Source of the DNA: Desulfurococcales archaeon
GTDB taxonomy: Archaea; Thermoproteota; Thermoprotei_A; Sulfolobales; NBVN01
Direction: 5' to 3'
Assembly: GCA_015523295.1 (NCBI GenBank)
Contig: WAKQ01000010.1
Coordinates: 59,021 to 123,020 of the forward strand
DNA: 64,000 nucleotides
Part shown: positions 1,368 through 62,088 of the stretch, in pieces
How the letters are laid out: each line of letters starts with the position of its first letter
Position numbering within the stretch: the first letter of the stretch is position 1
Notes under the pieces: generated by a model
The model's database searches: none
What the model was told of the DNA's origin: nothing
The model's input: the letters and a program-made list of their open reading frames with translations, nothing else
Translations under genes and position numbers: made by a program

Positions 1368-2561
1368 GTGCTGGATGAATGGTTCTCAGCTTTATCTATC
1401 CTTAGATGCACACGTTGCGGTAAGACTTACGACCCTAACGAGTTGAACACTGTTTGCCCTGCATGTAAAGGGGTTCTCTACGCTGAATACGATATCGAGA
1501 AGGTTAAGGAGAGACTGACATGGGATGTTATTAAGAGTAGGCCGAGAACCCTTGGGCTCTGGAGGTATTATGAGCTCCTTCCGGTTAGGAGGCGTGAAAA
1601 CGTGGTGAGCTTGGGTGAGGGGGCGACACCGTTGCTTAAAGCAGCCGGTTTGGGTAAGGCATTAGGGCTCAGCAACCTCTATATAAAGGATGAGTCGCTA
1701 AACCCTACGGGGACCTTCAAGGCTAGGGGTGTGGCTGTAGCTCTTTCTAAAGGTATTGAGTTAGGAGTTAGGAAGTTTGCAATGCCTTCAGCTGGGAATG
1801 CGGGTGCTGCCTTAGCGGCATATGCCGCTAAGGCAGGTGTGGAATCAGTCATATATGCACCTAAGTCAACCCCCATAGCGATGATTACGGAGATAAGGGC
1901 CTATGGCGCCAGGCTAACCCTTGTGGAGGGCTCCATCTCGGATGCGGCCAGAGAGCTGTCAAAGAGGGAAAAGGACGTCTTCGACATAACTACGATGAAG
2001 GAGCCTTACAGGGTTGAGGGTAAGAAAACTATGGGCTTCGAGATCGTTGAGCAGTTGGGTAGGGCTCCAGATGTTGTAATTTATCCTACGGGGGGAGGCA
2101 CGGGCCTCCTAGGGATATGGAAAGGGATGCTTGAATTGAGGGAGGCAGGCCTGTTAAAAGATGAGAGTATGCCTAGGATGGTTGCAGTGCAGTCTACAGG
2201 ATGCAACCCTATAGTTGAGGCGTTCAGGAAGGGTTGGGAGGAGGTGAAACCGCCTTCCAACCCCCAGACCATAGCAGCAGGCATTAGGGTTCCTAAGCCC
2301 TATGCAGATTACCTTATTCTTAAGGTTCTTCGTGAGAGCGGCGGTCTAGCTTTGGAAGTTACTGATGCTGAAATAATTGAGGCAGTTAAGGAGATGGCGA
2401 GGTTTGAAGGCCTCCTTCCATGCCCCGAAGGGGCTGCGACATTAGCAGGTCTCAAGAAGATGGTGAATGCCGGACAGATAGATAAGAGTGAGGAGGTAGT
2501 TCTGATTAACACAGGCTCAGGCCTCAAGTATATGGATGTTTTCTTGAGATATGGTCTTTAA
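1368..2561 (+). CDS. thrC: Threonine synthase (fold-type II PLP enzyme) with N-terminal Zn ribbon
   Basis: CTRCG..x..CPACKG zinc ribbon. PLP-lysine motif NPTGTFKARG, then SAGNAG and the glycine loop PTGGGTG. 397 aa. Confidence 0.85.
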   Translation: MLDEWFSALSILRCTRCGKTYDPNELNTVCPACKGVLYAEYDIEKVKERLTWDVIKSRPRTLGLWRYYELLPVRRRENVVSLGEGATPLLKAAGLGKALGLSNLYIKDESLNPTGTFKARGVAVALSKGIELGVRKFAMPSAGNAGAALAAYAAKAGVESVIYAPKSTPIAMITEIRAYGARLTLVEGSISDAARELSKREKDVFDITTMKEPYRVEGKKTMGFEIVEQLGRAPDVVIYPTGGGTGLLGIWKGMLELREAGLLKDESMPRMVAVQSTGCNPIVEAFRKGWEEVKPPSNPQTIAAGIRVPKPYADYLILKVLRESGGLALEVTDAEIIEAVKEMARFEGLLPCPEGAATLAGLKKMVNAGQIDKSEEVVLINTGSGLKYMDVFLRYGL

Positions 2562-52828: not shown

Positions 52829-53698
52829 ATGATGGATCCAATACTAGTAACGAATAACGTGCTTGACGGGCTCCTCATGGGCTTGCTCTACTCTCTAGTT
52901 GCATTGGGGCTAGCCTTAATCTTCGGTGTGATGGACATCATCAACTTTGCTCACGGTGACTTCGTCATGATTGGGGCATACACGGCATGGCTGCTGGCGA
53001 TGGCGTTCTGGGTGGATCCCTCAGTGACTGCCATAATTACTGTACCGTTATTCTTCATCATCGGAATAGGCATTTACAAGCTAGTGATCGAGCCAGTGCT
53101 AGGTGCTGAACCCTTAATTCAGATAGCTGTCACGGTAGGTCTTGGCTATGTGTTCCAGAATATTGCGCTGGCATTATGGCATGCAGAGCCTAAGTCATTC
53201 CCAGCTCCTTGGCTAAACTTCAGCATCTCTGCTGGCGGGATAACTCTCTCAGTGGCTAAGCTAATCGCTGGCGGGATATCAATTATCTCACTATACTTGA
53301 TACATTACATGCTTACGAAAACCAAGTTCGGTCTTGCAGTTAGAGCTACCTCAGCTAATAGAGAGGTCGCCCCTCTTATGGGTATAAACGTCAAGAAAGT
53401 GTATGCAATCACGTTCGGTATAGGGACAGCTCTCACAGCCTTAGGTGCCGCCCTGTATATGTCTTGGGGTCAGACGAACCCCTACCTAGGGCAATCCTTC
53501 AGCCTACTCTCGTGGGTTATAGTGGCTATGGGAGGCTTAGGTGGAGTTATAGGGGTGCTGTACTCCGGCCTCATCGTGGGGGTCTTAGAAGCACTTGGGA
53601 GCACCTTCATAACACCTAGTGCTAGGCTTGCAGTGGTCTACCTAGCGTTCTTCTTGCTTCTGTGGTTCAGGCCTAGAGGCCTCTTCGCTAGGAGGTGA
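52829..53698 (+). CDS. livH: Branched-chain amino acid-type ABC permease (LivH family)
   Basis: 289 aa, polytopic. The INFAHGDF motif is typical of LivH. Confidence 0.85.
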   Translation: MMDPILVTNNVLDGLLMGLLYSLVALGLALIFGVMDIINFAHGDFVMIGAYTAWLLAMAFWVDPSVTAIITVPLFFIIGIGIYKLVIEPVLGAEPLIQIAVTVGLGYVFQNIALALWHAEPKSFPAPWLNFSISAGGITLSVAKLIAGGISIISLYLIHYMLTKTKFGLAVRATSANREVAPLMGINVKKVYAITFGIGTALTALGAALYMSWGQTNPYLGQSFSLLSWVIVAMGGLGGVIGVLYSGLIVGVLEALGSTFITPSARLAVVYLAFFLLLWFRPRGLFARR

Positions 53699-54717
53699 TC
53701 GCGATGGCGCTCAGTGAATGGGTTAGGGAGAGTAGGAAATACATCCTCGGAACTATAATTCTGGTCCTGGTATTGGCATTCATCCCCTTCATCATAGGCT
53801 TCGATCAATACCTCCTCCTCATATTGTCAACTGCAGCAATATTCGCCGTATTTGTCGTGGCTTGGAACATCATAGGGGGATATGCTGGCCAGCTAGATCT
53901 AGGAGCTTTCGCCTATATAGCATTAGGCGGGATAGTAGCAGCTCAGCTTCTCGTAGTGTATAATATAACTCCCTGGATAGGGATGTTCGTAGGTGCTGGC
54001 GTATCCGCTGTACTGGCAGCGGCCATAGGTTACCCCACTTTCAGGTTCGGGATTAAGGAGGTATGGTATGCACTCCTGACAGCCGCCCTAGTTGTTATTC
54101 TGAATAATATCTTTCATCTCCCAGAGGTTCTAGGTTCCCTTGACCATTATCTACCACCCGCGAACGGTTGGTATTATCTGAAGTTCCCTGTTTATGAGAA
54201 CATATACTGGTTCATCTTAGCTATGCTGGCGATTGTAGTGTTCATCAACCTATGGGTAAGTAAGTCTAAGGTAGGATACTATCTAAGAGCTATACGTGAG
54301 GATGAGCTCGCCGCCGAGGCATTAGGTATTGACGTGAGGAAGTATAAGCTTGAGGCCCTAGTCCTCTACGCAGCTATCCTGGGTTTCATGGGTTACGTAT
54401 ATATAGTGATAGCAGGCACATACTCATACCATACATTCGACAGCCCTCATTCAATAGCTATTGCGATTATGGGTATCATAGGAGGCCTAGGCTCTATAGC
54501 AGGTGCCCTGACCTCTGCTATAACCCTGAAGGTGGTTGAGGAGTACCTGAGGGCGTCAATCGGAGCTACCATTCCCGGAATACATCTCCTGATTTACGGC
54601 CTCCTCCTAATAATAATAGGCATATTCAAGCCCGACGGGCTTGCAGGGATATATGAGTCCCTTAAAAAGAGGAGAACTTCTGGCAGAAAGAAGATTTCAG
54701 GAGGTGGTAATCCTTGA
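53695..54717 (+). CDS. livM: Branched-chain amino acid-type ABC permease (LivM family)
   Basis: 340 aa, polytopic. [10 protein letters not shown] motif. 4-nt overlap with livH. Confidence 0.85.
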
Positions 54718-55451
54718 GCGGTGGGGAGGAAATCCTGAAAGTCGAAAACGTGGTTAAAAGGTTCGGGGGGATTACAGCCGTCAACAGAGTATCCTTTAAT
54801 GTGAGGAAAGGCGAGATATTAGGGCTTATAGGCCCTAACGGTGCCGGTAAGACGACGCTATTTAACTGCATAACAGGTGTTTACAGACCTGAGGAGGGCA
54901 GGATAGTATTCTTAGGTGAAGATATCACTGGCCTGCAACCACACGTAATTGCAAGGAAGGGCATTGTAAGGACATGGCAAAAGGTCCGCCCATTTAAGAA
55001 GATGACAGTTCTCGACACAGTTACCGTGGGAGCACTGCTTAGAACAAACAGCGTTACAGAAGCTAAGAGAAAGGCCGAAGACATCCTTAAATTTATCGAG
55101 TTCCCTGAGGATAAGTTCGAGGTTATGGGGAAGGAGATAACATTGATAGAGCATAAGCTGGTGGACCTTGCAAGAGCTATAGCAACAGAGCCAACATTAC
55201 TTCTCCTAGATGAGGTGGCGGCAGGGCTAAGACCTAATGAGATGGAGAGGCTTGCGTCAATACTTAAGAAGGTTAATAAAGAGAGAAACCTGACGATGAT
55301 TGTCGTGGAGCACGTCATGCGTTTTGTTATGGGCTTAAGTCAGAGGATGATCGTGATGCATGAGGGTGAGAAGATAGCTGAAGGCACACCTCAGGAAATA
55401 GCGAATAATCCGAGAGTGATAGAAGCGTACTTAGGCACTAAGCCTTTGTAA
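54714..55451 (+). CDS. livG: ABC ATP-binding protein (LivG family)
   Basis: Walker [13 protein letters not shown], Walker B LLLLDE, C-terminal [10 protein letters not shown]. Confidence 0.9.
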
Positions 55452-55467
55452 GATGAGGTGAAGGGGA

Positions 55468-56181
55468 ATGGCTTCCATGCTAGAGTTGAAGAATGTCCAC
55501 GCAGGCTACGGGGAGTTTAGAGTCCTACATGGAGTGAATATGAGGGTAGATAAAGGTGAGATAGTCGCTCTTGTAGGCCCTAACGGTGCCGGTAAAACGA
55601 CGACTCTGAGGACTATACTTAATATGACTACCCGTTATGAAGGGGAAATAAAATTCCAGGGCAGGGACATTACCAGGATACCTACTCATAAGATAGTTGA
55701 GGAAGGCATAACGATGGTTCCTGAAGGGCGAGGGATTTTCAACCCACTCACAGTCTATGAGAACCTCTTAGCGGGTGCTTACACGAAGAGGGCTCAAGAG
55801 AAGATTGAGGACTCATTAGAGTTCGTGTTCTCCCTCTTCCCAAGACTTAAGGAAAGGAAGAACCAGATAGCCGGCACCCTCTCAGGCGGTGAGGCGCAGA
55901 TGCTGGCAATAGCTAGGGCGCTGATGGCAAGGCCTACGCTCCTAATGTTCGATGAGCCAAGCCTAGGCCTGGCACCTAAGATAGTGCTGGAGGTCTTCGA
56001 CGTTGTTGTTAAGTTAAGGGATTCGGGAGTGACTGTCCTCATAGTGGAGCAGCACGTGAAGAACTCATTAGAGGTTGCGGATAGGGCCTATGTTATGGAG
56101 ATGGGTCAGATAGTTCTCGAAGGTGAGGGTAAGGCGTTACTGAAGGATGAGAGGCTGAAGAAAGCCTACCTGATAATCTAA
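55468..56181 (+). CDS. livF: ABC ATP-binding protein (LivF family)
   Basis: Walker [12 protein letters not shown], signature LSGGEAQML, Walker B LLMFDEPS, C-terminal KKAYL. Confidence 0.9.
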   Translation: MASMLELKNVHAGYGEFRVLHGVNMRVDKGEIVALVGPNGAGKTTTLRTILNMTTRYEGEIKFQGRDITRIPTHKIVEEGITMVPEGRGIFNPLTVYENLLAGAYTKRAQEKIEDSLEFVFSLFPRLKERKNQIAGTLSGGEAQMLAIARALMARPTLLMFDEPSLGLAPKIVLEVFDVVVKLRDSGVTVLIVEQHVKNSLEVADRAYVMEMGQIVLEGEGKALLKDERLKKAYLII

Positions 56182-56210
56182 TGTTTTCTCACAAGAGCTT
56201 AAGGATGCTT

Positions 56211-56732
56211 TCAACCCCGCAAACCTCTTCTCATCTCATACTTAATTAACTCACTGAGAATGGACTCATATCTCTCTGAGGTGAGGGATACCCTAATAAA
56301 CCTCATTTGCCTGCCGGGCGGTTCTCCGGTGATGAGAGTGTGCAAGAGCTTTCTAGTTGTGACTGTTAAGTTAAGCCTTAAGGCATCTTTAAGAGGAAAG
56401 AACCCTATATCGAGGGATTCCTCGTTCGGGACAGGGTTTGAGGGTTCCACGTCTATAAGGTAGTCGAACATTATGTAATGATACATTAAATCATTTCTTT
56501 CCCCTACTTCAATATATTCAGTGATAGCATAGGGAATGACATTTACGGCCCTCAGCCCTGTTTCCTCCTTGAGCTCTCTAACGGCAGCTTCCTCAAGCGA
56601 CTCACCCGGCTCTACATGACCACCCGGCAAGGCCCACCTACCTGATGATGGATTAAACCTCCTCTTAACTAGGAGAATTTCCCCATCTTTAAGGACTATT
56701 GCGCCCACAGCAACTTTAGGCCAACCTGTCAT
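56211..56732 (-). CDS. NUDIX hydrolase
   Basis: Nudix box [24 protein letters not shown]. Confidence 0.8.
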
Positions 56733-56810
56733 GTCTTATCACTGAATACTAAAATCAGGAAGAGAAATATTAACTGGCGATAGAAGCTGGCTTCAGCAGC
56801 AATTACGTAC

Positions 56811-58127
56811 TTGAGATGCCTTAAGTGTGGCGAAAGATTCAACTCGGTAAACAAGGAAGTGAGGTGCCCGGTCTGTGGAGGGCTATTGATCCCTGCTTTA
56901 GAGGCGTCGACCTCCCTAAAGCCTTCCCCGGGTATTGGAGTGTGGATCTGGAGGAACTATCTTTTCAGTAGCAGATTGAGGGTTAACCTCTCCTTAGGGG
57001 AGGGCTTTACCCCCTTCTTAAAGCTTGAAAATCTCGGCAAGATCTATCGCTTAAGAAGGCTGTTCGTTAAGCTTGAGTCAAGGAACCCTACGGGAACGTT
57101 TATCGACCGCGGTTCGGCGACTCTTTTAAGTGTCGCTAAGGCCTTGAGGTTAAGGAATGTAGTAATAGCTGCTGCAGGCGATCTTGGCATCTCCATCTCA
57201 GCCTATGCAAGGAAGGCCGGCATAAAGACTAAGGTCTTCATGCCGTCAGCTACGACGACGGGCAAGGCAGCGAGAGCGGCTATTCTAGCTGATGACGTGG
57301 TATTCACGCAGGACTATGAGGAGGCTCTGAAGAAAGCGATAAAGTATGAGGGGGTTGACGGCACGTTGTTAGGAGTTCCCTATAATCCATACCTCATCGA
57401 CGGCTATAGGACTTTAGGATATGAAATCTTTCACTCTACATCCTCGCTGAACGGAAGGCTCAACATCCTGGTTCCTATAGGTAATGGAGCTTTAATGGTT
57501 GCTTTATGGAGTGCATTCAAAGACCTTAAGGGCAGGGCAAGATTCATAGGTGTGAAGGGGTGCTCTGACACACCCTTAATCAAGGATATATACGTTAGAA
57601 ACCCCCTTTTCGGAGATCTGGTGGGGGAAATTGTTGGTGAGACAGGAGGGGAGATTGTTGAAGTCTGTGAGGATGAAGCCCTGAAGGCTTCATCAAATTT
57701 AGCTAGATATGAGGGGATATTGGCGGGTCCGGTAGGCAGCTCCACTATAGCCGCCTTAAAAAAGCTTGACTTTATGCAGGAGGACATCATAGTTAGTGTA
57801 GTCAGCGGTGACTCACCGCCTGACCCAGCCGCTATTTATAGGATGCTAGAGCTTGGGAAGAGGAGGTTAAAGCGTGAAACCCCTCTGGGTCCCACCAAGA
57901 TTAAGATACTGGAGGTTATTGCGTTGAAGGGTCCAATACATCCCTACGAGATATGGAGAACTCTAAAAGTGGAGAATTCTTTCAGGCTTGGGCTAAGGAC
58001 TGTTTACCAGCATATCAACGAGTTGGAGAGTGCAGGGTACATCACTCTTTCAGGAGTGATTAACGTGAACGGCAGAAGAAGGAAGCTATACGACTTAACA
58101 CCACTTGCACTAAAGGCTTTAAGGTAG
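56811..58127 (+). CDS. Threonine-synthase-like (fold-type II PLP domain) protein lacking the catalytic lysine, fused to a C-terminal winged-helix DNA-binding domain
   Basis: N-terminal Zn ribbon CLKCG..CPVCGG. The motif reads NPTGTFIDRG where ThrC has NPTGTFKARG, with Ile98 encoded by ATC at 57102..57104. C-terminal residues about 352-438 (KIKILEVIALKGPIHPYEIWRTL...VYQHINELESAGYITL...GRRRKLYDLT) have an ArsR/MarR-like wHTH pattern. Confidence 0.7.
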   Translation: MRCLKCGERFNSVNKEVRCPVCGGLLIPALEASTSLKPSPGIGVWIWRNYLFSSRLRVNLSLGEGFTPFLKLENLGKIYRLRRLFVKLESRNPTGTFIDRGSATLLSVAKALRLRNVVIAAAGDLGISISAYARKAGIKTKVFMPSATTTGKAARAAILADDVVFTQDYEEALKKAIKYEGVDGTLLGVPYNPYLIDGYRTLGYEIFHSTSSLNGRLNILVPIGNGALMVALWSAFKDLKGRARFIGVKGCSDTPLIKDIYVRNPLFGDLVGEIVGETGGEIVEVCEDEALKASSNLARYEGILAGPVGSSTIAALKKLDFMQEDIIVSVVSGDSPPDPAAIYRMLELGKRRLKRETPLGPTKIKILEVIALKGPIHPYEIWRTLKVENSFRLGLRTVYQHINELESAGYITLSGVINVNGRRRKLYDLTPLALKALR

Positions 58128-58187
58128 GATGGAAAGAAGTTACAAGCTTTAAAGTAAAGACACACCCTAGATATTGAAGCTTATATT

Positions 58188-58994
58188 GTGGTTAACCTAC
58201 TAAAGCCCGCTAATGTGATTAGGCGGGGGAAGCACATGAAGTTTGATGTGATTAAGGCAACTCTCTATACGGCAGCTGTGTATGTAGCCACTGTTATACT
58301 GCAGGTCTCCACTCCGGCGACAGGAGGTTACTTCAATCTGGGTGAGACGGCCATCTATGTTGCCGCTCTCTTAAGCGATCCCCTGACAGCTGGGATAGCT
58401 GGTGGTGTAGGTTCGGCATTGGCGGACCTCACCACAGGGTACAGCTACTACGCGCCTGCAACGTTGGTGATAAAGTTTGTTGAAGGGTTCACAGTCTCCT
58501 GGCTAGCCCTTAAGCTTAGGGGTTGGAGCCTCTCACGAAGCAGGTATGCCTCCGCAATAACATCAGTTATTGTAGGTCTTGTGATAGCTGTAGTAGGTTT
58601 TTACCAGCTCTCAGGAGCATCGACAATATCATCAGCTCCTATTGAAGTATTAGGAGTAAAGTTGACCTCACTGCAGGTACAGGTATACCTTCCAGCAGCT
58701 TTCTGGACCGCTGTAGGCGTGATCGTGGCAGGGCTACTGTTCTACTTCACGGTCGTGAAGGGAGGTAGGAACGTTCACCTCACTCTCGCAATAGCTGTAG
58801 GAGGTTCACTCATGGTGCTTGGTTACCTCTTATACGAATATTTCATCGTTAACCCCATCATTCTTAAGTCACCACCAGTGCAGGCACTTACGGAGGTTCC
58901 AGTGAATTACGGACAGGTGTTCGTAGGGATGGCTGTGGCACTACCCATCACTTCCTTCGTCAGGGAGGCTTCAGGTAGTGAGGCTGAGAGTTGA
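58188..58994 (+). CDS. ECF-transporter substrate-specific (S) component-like membrane protein
   Basis: GGYFNLGETAIYVAALL...GVGSALADLTTGYSYYAPATLVIKFVEG matches the conserved S-component pattern of the riboflavin/queuosine-type family. It is longer than usual at 268 aa. The likely start is ATG 58233. Confidence 0.5.
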   Translation: MVNLLKPANVIRRGKHMKFDVIKATLYTAAVYVATVILQVSTPATGGYFNLGETAIYVAALLSDPLTAGIAGGVGSALADLTTGYSYYAPATLVIKFVEGFTVSWLALKLRGWSLSRSRYASAITSVIVGLVIAVVGFYQLSGASTISSAPIEVLGVKLTSLQVQVYLPAAFWTAVGVIVAGLLFYFTVVKGGRNVHLTLAIAVGGSLMVLGYLLYEYFIVNPIILKSPPVQALTEVPVNYGQVFVGMAVALPITSFVREASGSEAES

Positions 58995-60228
58995 AGGCCT
59001 TAGCGTCGCCTTCGGAAAACGCAAGGTACTTAACTCAGTCACTTTTTCCCTTGCAGATGGAGAGGCAATATTAATCGCAGGACCATCCGGATCCGGTAAG
59101 ACAACTCTACTTAGAACGCTAGCCGGTTTGACGGCTGGGTTCAAAGATTTCAGGGTGAGCGGCCGAGTAGAGCCGGGCCTCGTTGAAAGGCAGTCATATA
59201 TGGCCTACTTGCCTCAGGAACCTTGGTACGGCATTGCAACACCTTATGTATGGTCTGAAGTCACATCATTCAGTGGAGAGCCTGTTCAAAGAGTTGATGA
59301 GATATTATCAAGGTATGGGATGTCCGGAATGTCTATGAGGACTACCTACACCCTGAGCGCTGGTGAAACTCAGAGGCTTGCCACTCTCGTGGCTGAGAAG
59401 TCAGGTAAGCAGGTTCTCCTGCTGGACGAGCCAACCTCCCACTTGGATATAGGTAATGCCGAGAGAGTTAGGGAGGCTCTTAAAGCTTTAAGGGATGAAG
59501 GCAGGTCAATGATTATCGTTGACCATAATCCTGCATTCTGGGAAGGTATTGTGGACAAGAAGTACGTTATCTGGGATGGGAACCTCATCGATTACACTGA
59601 TGCAGTATATGCTGAAGCCATTAAGAGGTTAAGTGCTTTAAACCCTCCCAATAGCCGAGGAAGAGAGGTGCTCGACGTCCATGTGAGAAGATTCAGGCAC
59701 CCAGGCTCTAAGAGAGTTGTGATAAAGGAGTTTAGGCTTACCCTCCATAAGGGAGAGATAGTGTCTATATACGGTCCGTCTGGAGCTGGAAAGACCACTC
59801 TCCTTAAGGTGATTGCTTCATCATCACTTCTCCCGAGACCTGGCGCTGAGGTCACGCTTTCAGGTAAGCTGCTCTTCATCCCAGATAACCCTCTTCTCTT
59901 CTTCACAGCCCCCACATTAATGGAGGAGGTGGGTGAATCCAATGCATCCCTCCTTGAGGTGTTTCAGCTAACCAAGGTCGCCAATGTTCCCGTAGGCTTC
60001 CTTAGTACTGGTGAGAGAAGAAGGGGGGCGGTGGCTTCAGCCATCTCAAGAGGAGCCTCAGTAATTCTAGCGGATGAGCCCACAATAGGGCTCGACCCCC
60101 TAAACAAGGTTAACGTGCTTGAGTCTATAATTAGAGCTAGTGAAAAGGGTTGTGCCTTCTTAATAGCAACCCATGACCCAATCCTCCGCAACATCTCAAA
60201 CAGGGTGGTAGATGTTGGAAGTAGTTAG
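58978..60228 (+). CDS. Fused tandem ECF/CbiO-type ABC ATPase (A-A')
   Basis: Two Walker A motifs (GPSGSGKTTLL and GPSGAGKTTLL), two signature-like motifs (LSAGETQRL and LSTGERRR), and two Walker B motifs. Confidence 0.85.
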   Translation: MRLRVEGLSVAFGKRKVLNSVTFSLADGEAILIAGPSGSGKTTLLRTLAGLTAGFKDFRVSGRVEPGLVERQSYMAYLPQEPWYGIATPYVWSEVTSFSGEPVQRVDEILSRYGMSGMSMRTTYTLSAGETQRLATLVAEKSGKQVLLLDEPTSHLDIGNAERVREALKALRDEGRSMIIVDHNPAFWEGIVDKKYVIWDGNLIDYTDAVYAEAIKRLSALNPPNSRGREVLDVHVRRFRHPGSKRVVIKEFRLTLHKGEIVSIYGPSGAGKTTLLKVIASSSLLPRPGAEVTLSGKLLFIPDNPLLFFTAPTLMEEVGESNASLLEVFQLTKVANVPVGFLSTGERRRGAVASAISRGASVILADEPTIGLDPLNKVNVLESIIRASEKGCAFLIATHDPILRNISNRVVDVGSS

Positions 60229-60928
60229 GCATGTCCGCAACCTCCTCAACATAGCGACTGAGGTCGTATACCGGTCGATCTTCATAGGGGATGATCTACC
60301 AGCCAAGCATGTTAGCTTTGTAATCTACACCGCATATGCGTCCACCGAGATCCTACTTGCGAGGGAAGGGCTGTGTGGCATTGTAATAGCTACCATTTTC
60401 CTCCTTCTTCAATCGGGGCTTCAGAAAACTCATGAATGGCTAATATACTCCCTTCTTCTTGGAAGCCTCCCAGCAACATGGTACTTCATAACCACATTAC
60501 CCTTTACCTTATCGCCTCATTACTCCGGCTTAATTGCTTTAAGAGTCCTCATAATTTCTGCAGCCCTAACCTCCGTCCTGCAAAGACTTAATCCTATGGA
60601 GCTAGCATATATAGGCAGGAGGTTAGGGATAGGAGGGTCTTCTTTATATTTACCGCTTCTCTGGAAGGTCACACCTCACCTAATGAAGGACGTTGAGAAC
60701 GCGTTGACAGTGACAGCATTGAAAAGGGAGAAACTGTGGAAGGGCCTAGCGATCAGCTTCCTTGCCCTGGAAGAATACAGTGGCTACTACGAGGAAGGTC
60801 TTCATCTGAAGAAGGGGCTCTTCAGGCCAACATTCTGGTACGATTGGAGCGAGACTGCCCTGATGATTGCCCTACTAACTGCCTCTTCATTGACTTTAGC
60901 CTTCATGTGGTTCACTAGCATGCCATAG
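60212..60928 (+). CDS. ECF transporter transmembrane (T, CbiQ-like) component
   Basis: 238-aa polytopic protein that overlaps the ATPase gene by 17 nt. Its position and topology fit EcfT, but the motifs are weak. Confidence 0.5.
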   Translation: MLEVVRHVRNLLNIATEVVYRSIFIGDDLPAKHVSFVIYTAYASTEILLAREGLCGIVIATIFLLLQSGLQKTHEWLIYSLLLGSLPATWYFITTLPFTLSPHYSGLIALRVLIISAALTSVLQRLNPMELAYIGRRLGIGGSSLYLPLLWKVTPHLMKDVENALTVTALKREKLWKGLAISFLALEEYSGYYEEGLHLKKGLFRPTFWYDWSETALMIALLTASSLTLAFMWFTSMP

Positions 60929-60988
60929 CAGTTAAAGGATGAATTATTAGCTTCACATTGTTAATGATAAGGGGGTGATACTTAAGTC

Positions 60989-61369
60989 ATGAAGGTAGGT
61001 GATTCCTTCGAATACGTCTTTAAGACAGGGCATGAGCACTCCGCAAGGCATTTAGGTTCAGGAGATGTGGACGTCCTCTCAACGCCTTCAATGATCCTCT
61101 TTATGGAGGAAGCATGTAGGAGGTATTCTGATGAGGGGTTAAGGCCTAAGGAAACGACAGTTGGGATTCATGTAGACGTATATCATTTTAAGGCAGCGCC
61201 GACAGGCTCTGAAATAAAGGTCAGGGGGAAACTTCTCAGCATGGATGGTAGAAGGCTGACCTTCTGGGTTGAGGCTTGGTGGGGAGATGTCAAAATAGGG
61301 CAGGGGCTACATGAAAGGTACATAGTTAACAGAGAGGAATTCATTAGAAGGTTGCGTGGTGGGCAGTGA
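60989..61369 (+). CDS. Hotdog-fold thioesterase (FlK-like family)
   Basis: HLGSGDVDVLSTPSMILFMEEA...TTVG...H..AAPTG...GRRLTF pattern. 126 aa. Confidence 0.65.
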   Translation: MKVGDSFEYVFKTGHEHSARHLGSGDVDVLSTPSMILFMEEACRRYSDEGLRPKETTVGIHVDVYHFKAAPTGSEIKVRGKLLSMDGRRLTFWVEAWWGDVKIGQGLHERYIVNREEFIRRLRGGQ

Positions 61370-62088
61370 TGGTCTTGAGATGGTGTGAGTTAACAGGTAA
61401 GGATTTCGAGAAGCTGAAGCCTCAGATAGCGATCCTCCCGGTAGGGACTGTTGAGAGGCACGGAGATCACCTTCCATTAGGAACTGATAATATTGTTCCT
61501 GAATGGCTTGCTGAAAGAGTTGCTGAGAGGCTTGAGAATGCTGTAGTCCTACCTCCCGTCAAGTATGGGGTCTCAATAACGTTGGCTAAGTTCCCAGGTA
61601 CTATAAGCATACCACCTGAAGCCTTCATGAATTACGTAAAGCATATAATGCTTGAGGTGGTGAGGAACGGCATCAAGTACTTAGTAGTTATAAACGGTCA
61701 TGGAGGGAACACCAGGGAGCTTCAGGTCATATCTAAGGAAGTAGCTGCTGAGACGGAAGCTTCTGTATTGCTCATTGACTGGTGGCGTGACGTGGCTCAA
61801 GACAAACGGTTCAAGATATTCCAATATCCGGGGCATGCTGGAGAGGATGAAACGTCAGCGATTATGGCGATCAGGCCTGAACTCGTTAAGATGGAACATG
61901 CTGAAGATCATGTAATGCCTTATCCGAGGCTTAAGATCTACTCAAGAGTGCTGGAAGATAAGCTCTTCCCAAGGGCAGTGAATGGGAAGGCCACACTAGC
62001 AAGTGCGGAGAAGGGCAAAGAGTTCCTGAACGCGGTCATTGCTGATATAATTAAGGCTGTCGAGGAGTTCACGAAGTTAGTTGCTTAA
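61366..62088 (+). CDS. Creatininase-family amidohydrolase (ArfB-like formamide hydrolase family)
   Basis: LPVGTVERHGDHLPLGTDN, NGHGGN and GHAGEDETS motifs. TGATG coupling to the upstream gene. Confidence 0.75.
   Translation: MMVLRWCELTGKDFEKLKPQIAILPVGTVERHGDHLPLGTDNIVPEWLAERVAERLENAVVLPPVKYGVSITLAKFPGTISIPPEAFMNYVKHIMLEVVRNGIKYLVVINGHGGNTRELQVISKEVAAETEASVLLIDWWRDVAQDKRFKIFQYPGHAGEDETSAIMAIRPELVKMEHAEDHVMPYPRLKIYSRVLEDKLFPRAVNGKATLASAEKGKEFLNAVIADIIKAVEEFTKLVA

Follow-up and report, generated by a model that had tools for sequence, protein, structure and literature searches.

A threonine synthase-like domain fused to a PadR-type winged helix in Archaea: a candidate vitamin B6-responsive regulator of B6 supply genes

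Known enzyme-derived vitamin regulators and the archaeal fusion protein

In bacteria, PdxR and the other MocR regulators carry a sensor domain derived from a pyridoxal 5'-phosphate (PLP) enzyme fused to a winged helix-turn-helix (wHTH), and their operators are made of direct and/or inverted repeats. The PdxR regulons comprise pdxST, pdxK and pdxU, the last being the S gene of an energy-coupling factor (ECF) transporter (PMC5320631), and these are the kinds of genes that neighbor the archaeal family described here. In Archaea, the vitamin regulator RbkR senses its cofactor through an enzyme domain fused to a wHTH and holds biosynthesis and ECF-type uptake genes under palindromic operators (PMC5397151). 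In this work, we analyzed a gene located at 56811..58127 on the forward strand of a 64,000-nucleotide stretch (the window, hereafter) of contig WAKQ01000010.1 from a Desulfurococcales archaeon. Its product joins a domain similar to threonine synthase (ThrC, EC 4.2.3.1, archaeal Zn-ribbon type) to a C-terminal PadR-type wHTH, and it probably is a transcription factor that evolved from archaeal threonine synthase and regulates B6 supply genes in response to B6. Taken separately, regulation of the adjacent ECF operon by the fusion protein is very likely, and a B6 vitamer is rather probably the signal that it senses. The computed results that carry this view are (i) the architecture of the protein, (ii) the clade-wide loss of the Schiff-base lysine, (iii) the conservation of the cofactor pocket and of the neighboring genes, (iv) the specificity of a sequence motif and (v) the homology of the adjacent S component.

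In MocR proteins, the wHTH is of the GntR type and stands at the N-terminus, and the aminotransferase domain is of fold-type I and retains the Schiff-base Lys, whereas the archaeal family has a fold-type II ThrC domain, usually devoid of this Lys, and a C-terminal PadR-type wHTH. Because PLP fold, HTH family, domain order and Lys status all differ, the family does not belong to MocR, and its resemblance to PdxR/MocR is one of convergence and not of homology. RbkR differs from it in enzyme fold, vitamin and wHTH family, and it is bifunctional, having kept its enzymatic activity; within the archaeal family only two rare Lys-retaining members, P0237 and P0253, could be candidates for a bifunctionality of this sort. 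Another archaeal regulator, ThiR, reportedly described by Rodionov et al. (2017, J Bacteriol), is said to combine a ThiN-like domain with an HTH and to use this catalytically degenerate enzyme homologue as the sensor that controls thiamine synthesis and transport genes. Its ancestor would be the thiamine-phosphate synthase ThiN, and its vitamin and, reportedly, its domain order differ from those of the fusion family. Canonical PadR regulators, for their part, are proteins of ~100-180 aa with an N-terminal wHTH followed by one or more C-terminal dimerisation helices; the fusion protein is not one of them, because its wHTH is C-terminal, behind a 340-residue enzyme-like domain.

Domain architecture, Schiff-base lysine and cofactor pocket

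The gene and the parts of its product are located as follows.

56811..58127 (+), stop codon included: ThrC-like/PadR fusion gene, candidate B6-responsive transcription factor; TTG start, 438 aa
56817..56876 (+): N-terminal Zn ribbon, common to archaeal ThrC; C3-x2-C6...C19-x2-C22, read from the sequence
56991..57809 (+): PALP domain (fold-type II PLP enzyme), presumed ligand sensor, residues 61-333; Pfam E=3.8e-50
57102..57104 (+): ATC codon, Ile98 at the position of the Schiff-base lysine, in the motif NPTGTFIDRG
57828..57890 (+): flexible linker between sensor and DNA-binding domain, residues ~340-360; low confidence in AlphaFold2
57891..58124 (+): C-terminal PadR-type winged helix-turn-helix, residues 361-438; Pfam PadR and AlphaFold2 topology

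The window protein is identical to P0001, from a 286,919-bp scaffold of a metagenome-assembled genome (MAG). With ThrC it has in common the N-terminal Zn ribbon, the PALP fold and the motifs NPTG-F-DR, G-(N/D), G-x-G and (T/S)-G; cysteines C6, C19 and C22 of the ribbon are at least 90% conserved across the fused clade, and Pfam gave weak matches only for this part (Zn_ribbon_8/DUF7129). The AlphaFold2 model, computed from an alignment of 39 clade members, has a mean predicted local distance difference test score (pLDDT) of 90.7, and the nearest solved folds are the threonine synthases 6cgq, 2zsj and 1uin (Foldseek E ~1e-20, TM 0.75-0.80); among solved structures, none spans a fusion of PALP and wHTH. 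In the linker, pLDDT lies at 55-67 and drops below 50 at residues 351-355. The C-terminal segment is modeled as three helices (361-373, 378-388 and 395-407), two strands (411-419 and 422-429) and a last helix (431-437), that is, as a winged HTH, and residues 366-431 match Pfam PadR (PF03551) with E=4.4e-8 and 33.4 bits against a gathering score of 27. The same Pfam assignment is precomputed for most clade members. The predicted recognition helix (~395-407) contains a conserved YQH, and Y379, Y399 and H401 are invariant within the fused clade. Every element on which a first-pass annotation of this DNA had based a ThrC-like architecture was found again (the Zn ribbon, NPTGTFIDRG, AAGDLG and GNGAL), and the C-terminal wHTH that it had proposed, with modeling named as a possible refutation, models as such with high confidence and can be sharpened to the PadR type.

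The same annotation had pointed out the missing lysine. Ile98 is encoded by ATC, two substitutions away from either Lys codon, whereas the comparator ThrC encoded at 1368..2561 of the window reads NPTGTFKARG. Lys was present in all 4 ThrC controls, i.e. this protein and three others, and absent from all of the ~38 cluster representatives with PALP+PadR architecture that a first protein search returned, which have I, L, M or R. When one genome was scanned for each species, 255 loci of the fused family were confirmed, spanning Desulfurococcales, Zestosphaera, Njord-, Thor-, Prometh-, Baldr- and Borrarchaeota, Bathyarchaeia, Nitrososphaerota, Methanomethylicia and Thermoplasmata, and 322 loci were found in metagenomes; the genome scan is not usable as a test of Lys loss because its pattern excludes Lys. 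For an unbiased test, 1.84 billion representatives were searched with a profile, and from the outcome a fused set (n=108, made of 107 representatives plus the window protein) and an unfused comparison set (n=44) were compared at the Schiff-base column.

108 fused sequences: I 37, L 24, R 16, V 10, T 6, M 5, F 2, K 2, gap 2, and N, S, A and Y 1 each
44 unfused sequences: K 41; 3 exceptions

Thus, 104 of the 108 fused sequences have a residue other than Lys, two have Lys and two are gapped. The three unfused exceptions fall within the fused clade; two of them are truncated or frameshift-like, and the third, P0268, is full-length and devoid of the wHTH. Neighbor joining (no bootstrap) placed the fused proteins, with the exception of one long-branch outlier, in a single clade of 110 terminals. 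This clade has two parts, an Arg/Lys-type subclade of 22 terminals and a hydrophobic-type subclade of 88, the latter holding the window protein. The two Lys-retaining fused proteins, P0237 from a Lokiarchaeota MAG and P0253 from Bathyarchaeota (a 62-member cluster), are genuine, keep all the ThrC catalytic motifs and fall within the Arg-type subclade. Either they combine the functions of enzyme and regulator or they may be relics of a transition from enzyme to sensor; both are possibilities only. Lys loss, whose conservation among the fused proteins had been set as a check, does characterize their clade, but these two members keep it from being universal there.

Could the annotation nevertheless be right, and the protein be a true threonine synthase or some other enzyme of fold-type II, with a C-terminal domain that plays no regulatory role? 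In the public sources that we checked, the entries of the family go by "threonine synthase", "PLP-dependent enzyme" or "hypothetical", the best NCBIfam match of the window protein is NF004170 (PRK05638, the "threonine synthase" equivalog), and two fused relatives have Lys together with all catalytic motifs. However, we hold this to be very improbable in view of the Ile at the Schiff-base position with its two nucleotide changes from a Lys codon, the Lys loss throughout the clade, the PadR wHTH, which exceeds its Pfam threshold and is predicted to fold confidently, and the scores of the window protein, which lie far below every curated ThrC cut-off (NF004170, 155 vs 421; NF006050, 132 vs 303; TIGR00260, 77 vs 167), while the ThrC at 1368..2561 passes (NF006050, 510>303; TIGR00260, 196>167). 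Because it lacks the defining Lys and stays under the curated thresholds, the fusion protein would not be a threonine synthase. It further differs from ThrC by ~100 added residues of linker and wHTH, and by the neighbors of its gene, which belong to B6 transport and synthesis and not to threonine biosynthesis.

The fused family is systematically annotated as an enzyme in the databases. As NF004170 aligns end to end with fused members, wHTH included (401.5 bits for P0035), the fusion architecture is already in the databases, functionally mis-assigned. Moreover, the Lys-less P0031 passes NF006050 (350.6>303) and TIGR00260 (211>167), and the Lys-less P0035 passes TIGR00260 (210>167). The claim of novelty made in the first-pass annotation therefore stands for function, no functional description of the PALP-PadR family having been found in the searchable literature (few subscription journals covered), but not for the architecture. 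Neither was a description of B6 sensing or regulation in Archaea found in the searchable literature.

Around the lost lysine, the cofactor pocket is kept. Residues N92, P93, F97, D99, R100, G123, S128, P222, G224, G226 and T/S332 are invariant or nearly so in the clade, and they stay constant although clade members diverge to ~28-30% identity. We take P222, G224 and G226 to be the phosphate-loop residues, Thr/Ser332 presumably contacts the pyridine N1, and the column of residue 124 (D/N) is taken here as that of the O3'-contacting Asn of fold-type II enzymes; clade-wide, this column holds D in 32 sequences and N in 7. A DNA-binding regulator whose dead enzyme domain is a dimerisation scaffold devoid of ligand, acting constitutively or regulated at the protein level, would agree with the loss of the catalytic Lys, and the Asn-to-Asp exchange, together with an Asp in the phosphate loop, could disfavor binding of the PLP phosphate. 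It is nonetheless quite unlikely, since invariant cofactor-pocket residues at ~28-30% identity are not expected of a mere scaffold, and the analogous PdxR and RbkR sense through their enzyme domains (PMC5320631, PMC5397151).

The adjacent ECF operon, pdxST and the candidate operators

Downstream of the regulator gene, the following features were located.

58170..58192 (+): candidate operator, direct repeat ATATTGAAG (58171-58179) / ATATTGTGG (58183-58191) with a 12-bp period; position weight matrix (PWM)
58198..58205 (+): putative TATA-like element TACTAAAG of the S promoter, 6 nt after the operator; inferred from alignment
58236..58994 (+): ECF S component of the PdxU/PdxU2 (HmpT) family, candidate B6-vitamer binding subunit; PF07155 E=7e-23
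58978..60228 (+): fused ECF A-A' ATPase, 416 aa; two ABC_tran stretches, Pfam E=4e-36
60212..60928 (+): conserved hydrophobic protein in the EcfT position, T identity unverified; by position only

The S gene starts at an ATG at 58236 according to the gene caller, 108 nt after the regulator gene, or at 58188 (gap of 60 nt) if the longest open reading frame (ORF) is taken. Gene neighbors were clustered in 82 genome loci, and 79 loci from metagenomes served as an independent sample. An S homologue directly adjoins the regulator in 49/82 of the genome loci, across Thermoproteota, Nitrososphaerota, Bathyarchaeia, Asgard archaea and Thermoplasmata, and in 48/79 of the metagenome loci, and wherever one occurs within 10 kb of the regulator in the genome loci it is always the adjacent gene (49/49). 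Of these 49 neighbors, 29 are divergent (mostly in Bathyarchaeia, Nitrososphaerota and Asgard archaea) and 20 lie immediately downstream (in Desulfurococcales). The idea that the transporter is the likely target of the regulator, voiced when the window was first read, is well supported by this conservation across phyla. An ATP-binding cassette (ABC) ATPase is found at the +2 position in 18 loci, and 17 loci have the T-position protein at +3, as does the divergent locus L089 (L089:8381-9088); the order regulator, S, A-A' and T-position gene recurs with an Arg-type member that is 27% identical to the query. The accompanying proposal of a complete ECF importer holds for S (PF07155) and A-A', which lie on the same strand, but not yet for T, a label given by position because no similarity to EcfT was detectable: the protein had no Pfam, NCBIfam or PDB match, even by profile, and its profile revealed no link to EcfT among all ORFs of the fetched loci. 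The protein search returned one homologue, and an AlphaFold2 model from the 2 sequences (pLDDT 39) was unusable. The members of this conserved orphan family are either T components that have diverged very far or coupling proteins of another kind.

The link to vitamin B6 comes, first, from the S component. In the PDB, the sole match of the window S protein was chain S of 4HZU (E=1.2e-6), and the same chain was all that a profile built from ten S proteins of regulator loci retrieved (E=2.7e-20, 76 bits); at E<=10, neither query matched the structure of RibU or of any further S component. 4HZU_S is HmpT/PdxU2 of Lactobacillus brevis, whose bound substrate was identified as pyridoxamine (PMC4860826). 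B6 transport in prokaryotes has been termed poorly studied, and PdxU and PdxU2/HmpT, both in COG4720/PF07155, are two of the three characterized prokaryotic B6 transporters (PMC9997740). The archaeal S proteins belong to the same PF07155/COG4720, with 4HZU_S as the only solved homologue, but they differ from HmpT/PdxU2 and PdxU by an insertion of ~80 residues and, in the window, by a dedicated operon with its own A-A' ATPase. The pocket was compared at the HmpT residues Glu41, His84, Gln87, Tyr120, Asn140 and Gln143 (PMC4860826): Glu41 and Tyr120 align with a conserved E and an invariant Y of the archaeal S family, and an N-x-x-Q motif is present there, one residue out of register in the alignment, beside a gap. 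Identification of the S gene as RibU, which the Pfam label "riboflavin" would suggest, was rejected, as no RibU structure was matched and PdxU/PdxU2 are in PF07155 (PMC9997740, PMC5397151).

Second, in two Asgard lineages without S the regulator adjoins pdxS-pdxT, which encode PLP synthase, in tandem in Baldrarchaeum (L080) and divergently in Borrarchaeum (L069), with Pfam matches at the two loci to SOR_SNZ (8e-101 and 2e-97) and SNO (1e-58 and 3.5e-50). Four more divergent pdxST cases, of about two distinct sequences, were found in metagenomes, and every pdxS found in the fetched loci adjoins the regulator. The spacer between pdxS and the regulator gene carries the same motif as the divergent S loci. 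What had been a guess at B6 thus gains two independent supports, the HmpT/PdxU2-like S component and the Asgard pdxS-pdxT adjacency with its shared motif.

In Desulfurococcales, the spacer between regulator and S has the consensus ATAnTGAnG-N3-ATAnTGnnG, a direct repeat, with a TATA-like element 6 nt further downstream. A 23-nt PWM trained on 12 orthologous sites, the window site being left out, scored the window site at 26.3 bits, compared with 15.8 for the next-best site in the 64 kb and a maximum of 17.8 in 30 Markov-1 random 64-kb sequences. The candidate operator ends 44 nt upstream of the S start codon. Operator-like sites orthologous to it lie upstream of S genes in 18 further loci, and every PWM match that reached 21 bits in the fetched loci precedes an S gene by 28-46 nt. 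No further site of the window scored above the random range, and none was found at thrC (1368), at the Liv-type transporter operon described below or in the 56733..56810 region upstream of the regulator. At the same offset as TACTAAAG, and aligned with it, the orthologous regions have CCTAAAAA, CCCTTATT or CCTTAAAC. In the lineages with the divergent arrangement the spacer motif is ATATATAAG-N6-CCTATATATAGG, and its half-site ATATATAAG and the half-site ATATTGAAG of the window resemble each other. The exact 12-mer CCTATATATAGG was found at the regulator start in 13/14 occurrences within 1.26 Mb of genome loci and in 32/36 occurrences within 0.67 Mb of metagenome loci; being near-confined to the regulator start, it is not a generic TATA box. 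No riboswitch or other RNA element was detected, Rfam giving no match at E<=1 in 56000..61200.

These motifs have cores similar to TATATA, at a distance of 25-45 nt from start codons, and much of the Desulfurococcales neighborhood (NUDIX, Liv, FlK) is plain synteny, so that one might see in them core promoter elements (TATA box and B recognition element, BRE) and in the adjacency of the genes an inherited order with no bearing on regulation. We consider such an explanation improbable, however, because (i) the exact 12-mer palindrome is near-confined to one intergenic region among ~2 Mb with thousands of promoters, (ii) S is adjacent in two orientations and across phyla, (iii) the same motif precedes a different target, pdxST, and (iv) the Desulfurococcales repeat is followed by a separate TATA-like element.

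A regulator that senses a metabolite of the threonine pathway or of amino acids (O-phosphohomoserine, threonine, homoserine or a PLP-amino-acid adduct) and controls a non-B6 transporter is a further alternative, and a somewhat less remote one, although still unlikely. The sensor domain descends from threonine synthase, a Liv-type amino-acid ABC operon lies just upstream in the Desulfurococcales synteny, the substrates of PF07155 are largely unverified (PMC9997740), and N124D and the changes in the S-T-G-N-T loop could retune specificity. Against it, no operator was found at the bona fide thrC or at the Liv operon of the window, and what accompanies the regulator from phylum to phylum is the PdxU2-like S gene or pdxS-pdxT and not a set of amino-acid genes. 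Besides, ThrC holds its substrate largely via the PLP aldimine and hence needs the cofactor, and the clade-conserved residues are those that contact the cofactor.

Some loci show the motif, or a related repeat, in other settings. In three ECF-less Desulfurococcaceae (L011, L025 and L026), a repeat ATATTGTAC-N5-ATATTGAAG lies 42-120 nt upstream of the regulator gene itself, which suggests autoregulation in those loci. In Nitrososphaerales, a 332-aa protein similar to AIR synthase and HypE (L046:8098-9096, -) is encoded downstream of S (L046:9121-9867), and its gene replaces S as the divergent neighbor of the regulator in L038, L059 and L070; the palindrome is retained. It matches Pfam AIRS and AIRS_C and scores 100 against a cut-off of 251 with NCBIfam hypE; it is possibly an additional regulon member, perhaps an ATP-dependent B6-salvage enzyme.

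The remaining neighbors were treated as synteny, because they are conserved only in close relatives and are motif-free. In 27-29 Desulfurococcales loci, a NUDIX hydrolase gene (56211..56732, - in the window) and the regulator gene are transcribed divergently; the spacer that the two genes share yielded no operator-like site, and their link may be one of synteny. Just upstream of this pair, a complete Liv-type (branched-chain amino-acid-like) ABC operon, with a binding protein, two permeases and two ATPases, occupies 53695..56181 (+) of the window and continues upstream, as judged from L001; it is syntenic in relatives, ECF-less ones included. Directly after the ECF operon, a gene for an FlK-like thioesterase (60989..61369, +) overlaps a creatininase-family gene (61366..62088, +), and where the ECF genes are absent (L003, L008, L011, L026 and L074) this thioesterase gene is the immediate downstream neighbor of the regulator. 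The locus of a 44%-identical homologue keeps the NUDIX, Liv, FlK and creatininase neighbors and has no ECF genes. Membership of these four in the regulon was accordingly rejected, as they are kept only among close Desulfurococcales and have no motif. Glutamine synthetase genes were seen near two divergent members, P0032 and P0051 (L087:6607-7995, +, and L089:3163-4446, -), accompanied in L089 by an Lrp/AsnC regulator; both occurrences may be coincidental.

A putative route of vitamin B6 sensing and its implications

Taken together, these results suggest how the system may work. The ThrC-like domain, having lost its Lys and kept the rest of the PLP pocket, would bind a B6 vitamer reversibly and non-covalently, be it PLP or pyridoxamine 5'-phosphate (PMP)/pyridoxamine; since the Lys is absent no internal aldimine can form, which suits reversible sensing of the free cofactor pool. 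We infer the ligand, the DNA binding, the geometry of the dimer and the sign of regulation from the computed results. The sensor domain would dimerise in the manner of ThrC, and the flexible linker would set the two PadR-type winged helices on ATATTGAAG-N3-ATATTGTGG. This repeat abuts the putative BRE/TATA region of the downstream promoter or, in other lineages, overlaps a TATA-like core, and the promoter would drive a dedicated ECF importer composed of a PdxU/PdxU2-like S, the A-A' fusion ATPase and, probably, a T subunit. Most likely, the regulator would repress its targets while B6 is plentiful and release them when B6 runs short; this logic is the simplest one, because the site abuts or overlaps the BRE/TATA and both uptake and synthesis genes carry it. 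Alternatively, the protein may activate transcription from a site just upstream of the BRE. As the family adjoins pdxS-pdxT with a related motif in other archaea, it can be regarded as a candidate regulator of B6 supply at large.

Several observations weigh against this proposal. In the subclade of the window protein, the O3'-contacting Asn is replaced by Asp (N124D) and the phosphate loop often has an Asp, so the ligand may not be PLP itself; PMP and pyridoxamine are live alternatives because of this Asn-to-Asp change and the preference of HmpT for pyridoxamine. In the archaeal S family, two of the six HmpT pocket residues are changed, His84 to an invariant Lys and Gln87 to an invariant Glu, and within PF07155/COG4720 substrates are verified for HmpT only. 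The adjacency of pdxST comes from few organisms, about 3-4 distinct ones, and a motif scan, a weak test over 64 kb, detected no pdxS/pdxT hallmark in the window. Furthermore, some 35-40% of the loci, some of them on short contigs, have neither S nor pdxST beside the regulator. As for the operators, the motif is a direct repeat in Desulfurococcales and an inverted repeat elsewhere, geometries that a flexible linker might both accommodate, and the motifs, rich in AT, border on TATA-like sequence or overlap with it, so that their conservation is perhaps partly that of the promoter. Notwithstanding, a B6-responsive regulator of B6 supply genes is in our view the probable identity of the fusion protein.

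A broader proposal is that this protein belongs to the principal vitamin B6 regulator of Archaea, pan-archaeal in that it extends over TACK, Asgard archaea and some Thermoplasmata, which arose from a fusion of ThrC with PadR followed by the loss of Lys. It is put forward tentatively, as we deem it slightly more doubtful than probable. Under it, the extant Lys- and Arg-bearing forms would mark the transition from enzyme to sensor; their survival is consistent with such a trajectory. If it is true, (i) the PF07155 S proteins would be archaeal B6 importers, (ii) other members of the regulon, such as the Nitrososphaerales AIR-synthase/HypE-like protein, would be flagged as missing B6-salvage functions and (iii) hundreds of "threonine synthase" annotations would be wrong. 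Since curated threonine synthase models cover or admit Lys-less fused proteins, metabolic reconstructions of many archaeal MAGs, among them those of Asgard archaea and of relatives of ammonia oxidizers, may credit ThrC wrongly and overlook a regulator.

In summary, the PALP-PadR proteins are a widespread and apparently undescribed archaeal family, new as a family although the kind of system is known, and are of interest for archaeal physiology, vitamin metabolism and genome annotation. Bacteria joined a fold-type I domain to a GntR HTH and archaea apparently a fold-type II domain to a PadR HTH, in what would be a case of convergent evolution. For vitamin B6 in Archaea, the family thus supplies concrete candidates for a regulator, for its operator and for importers.

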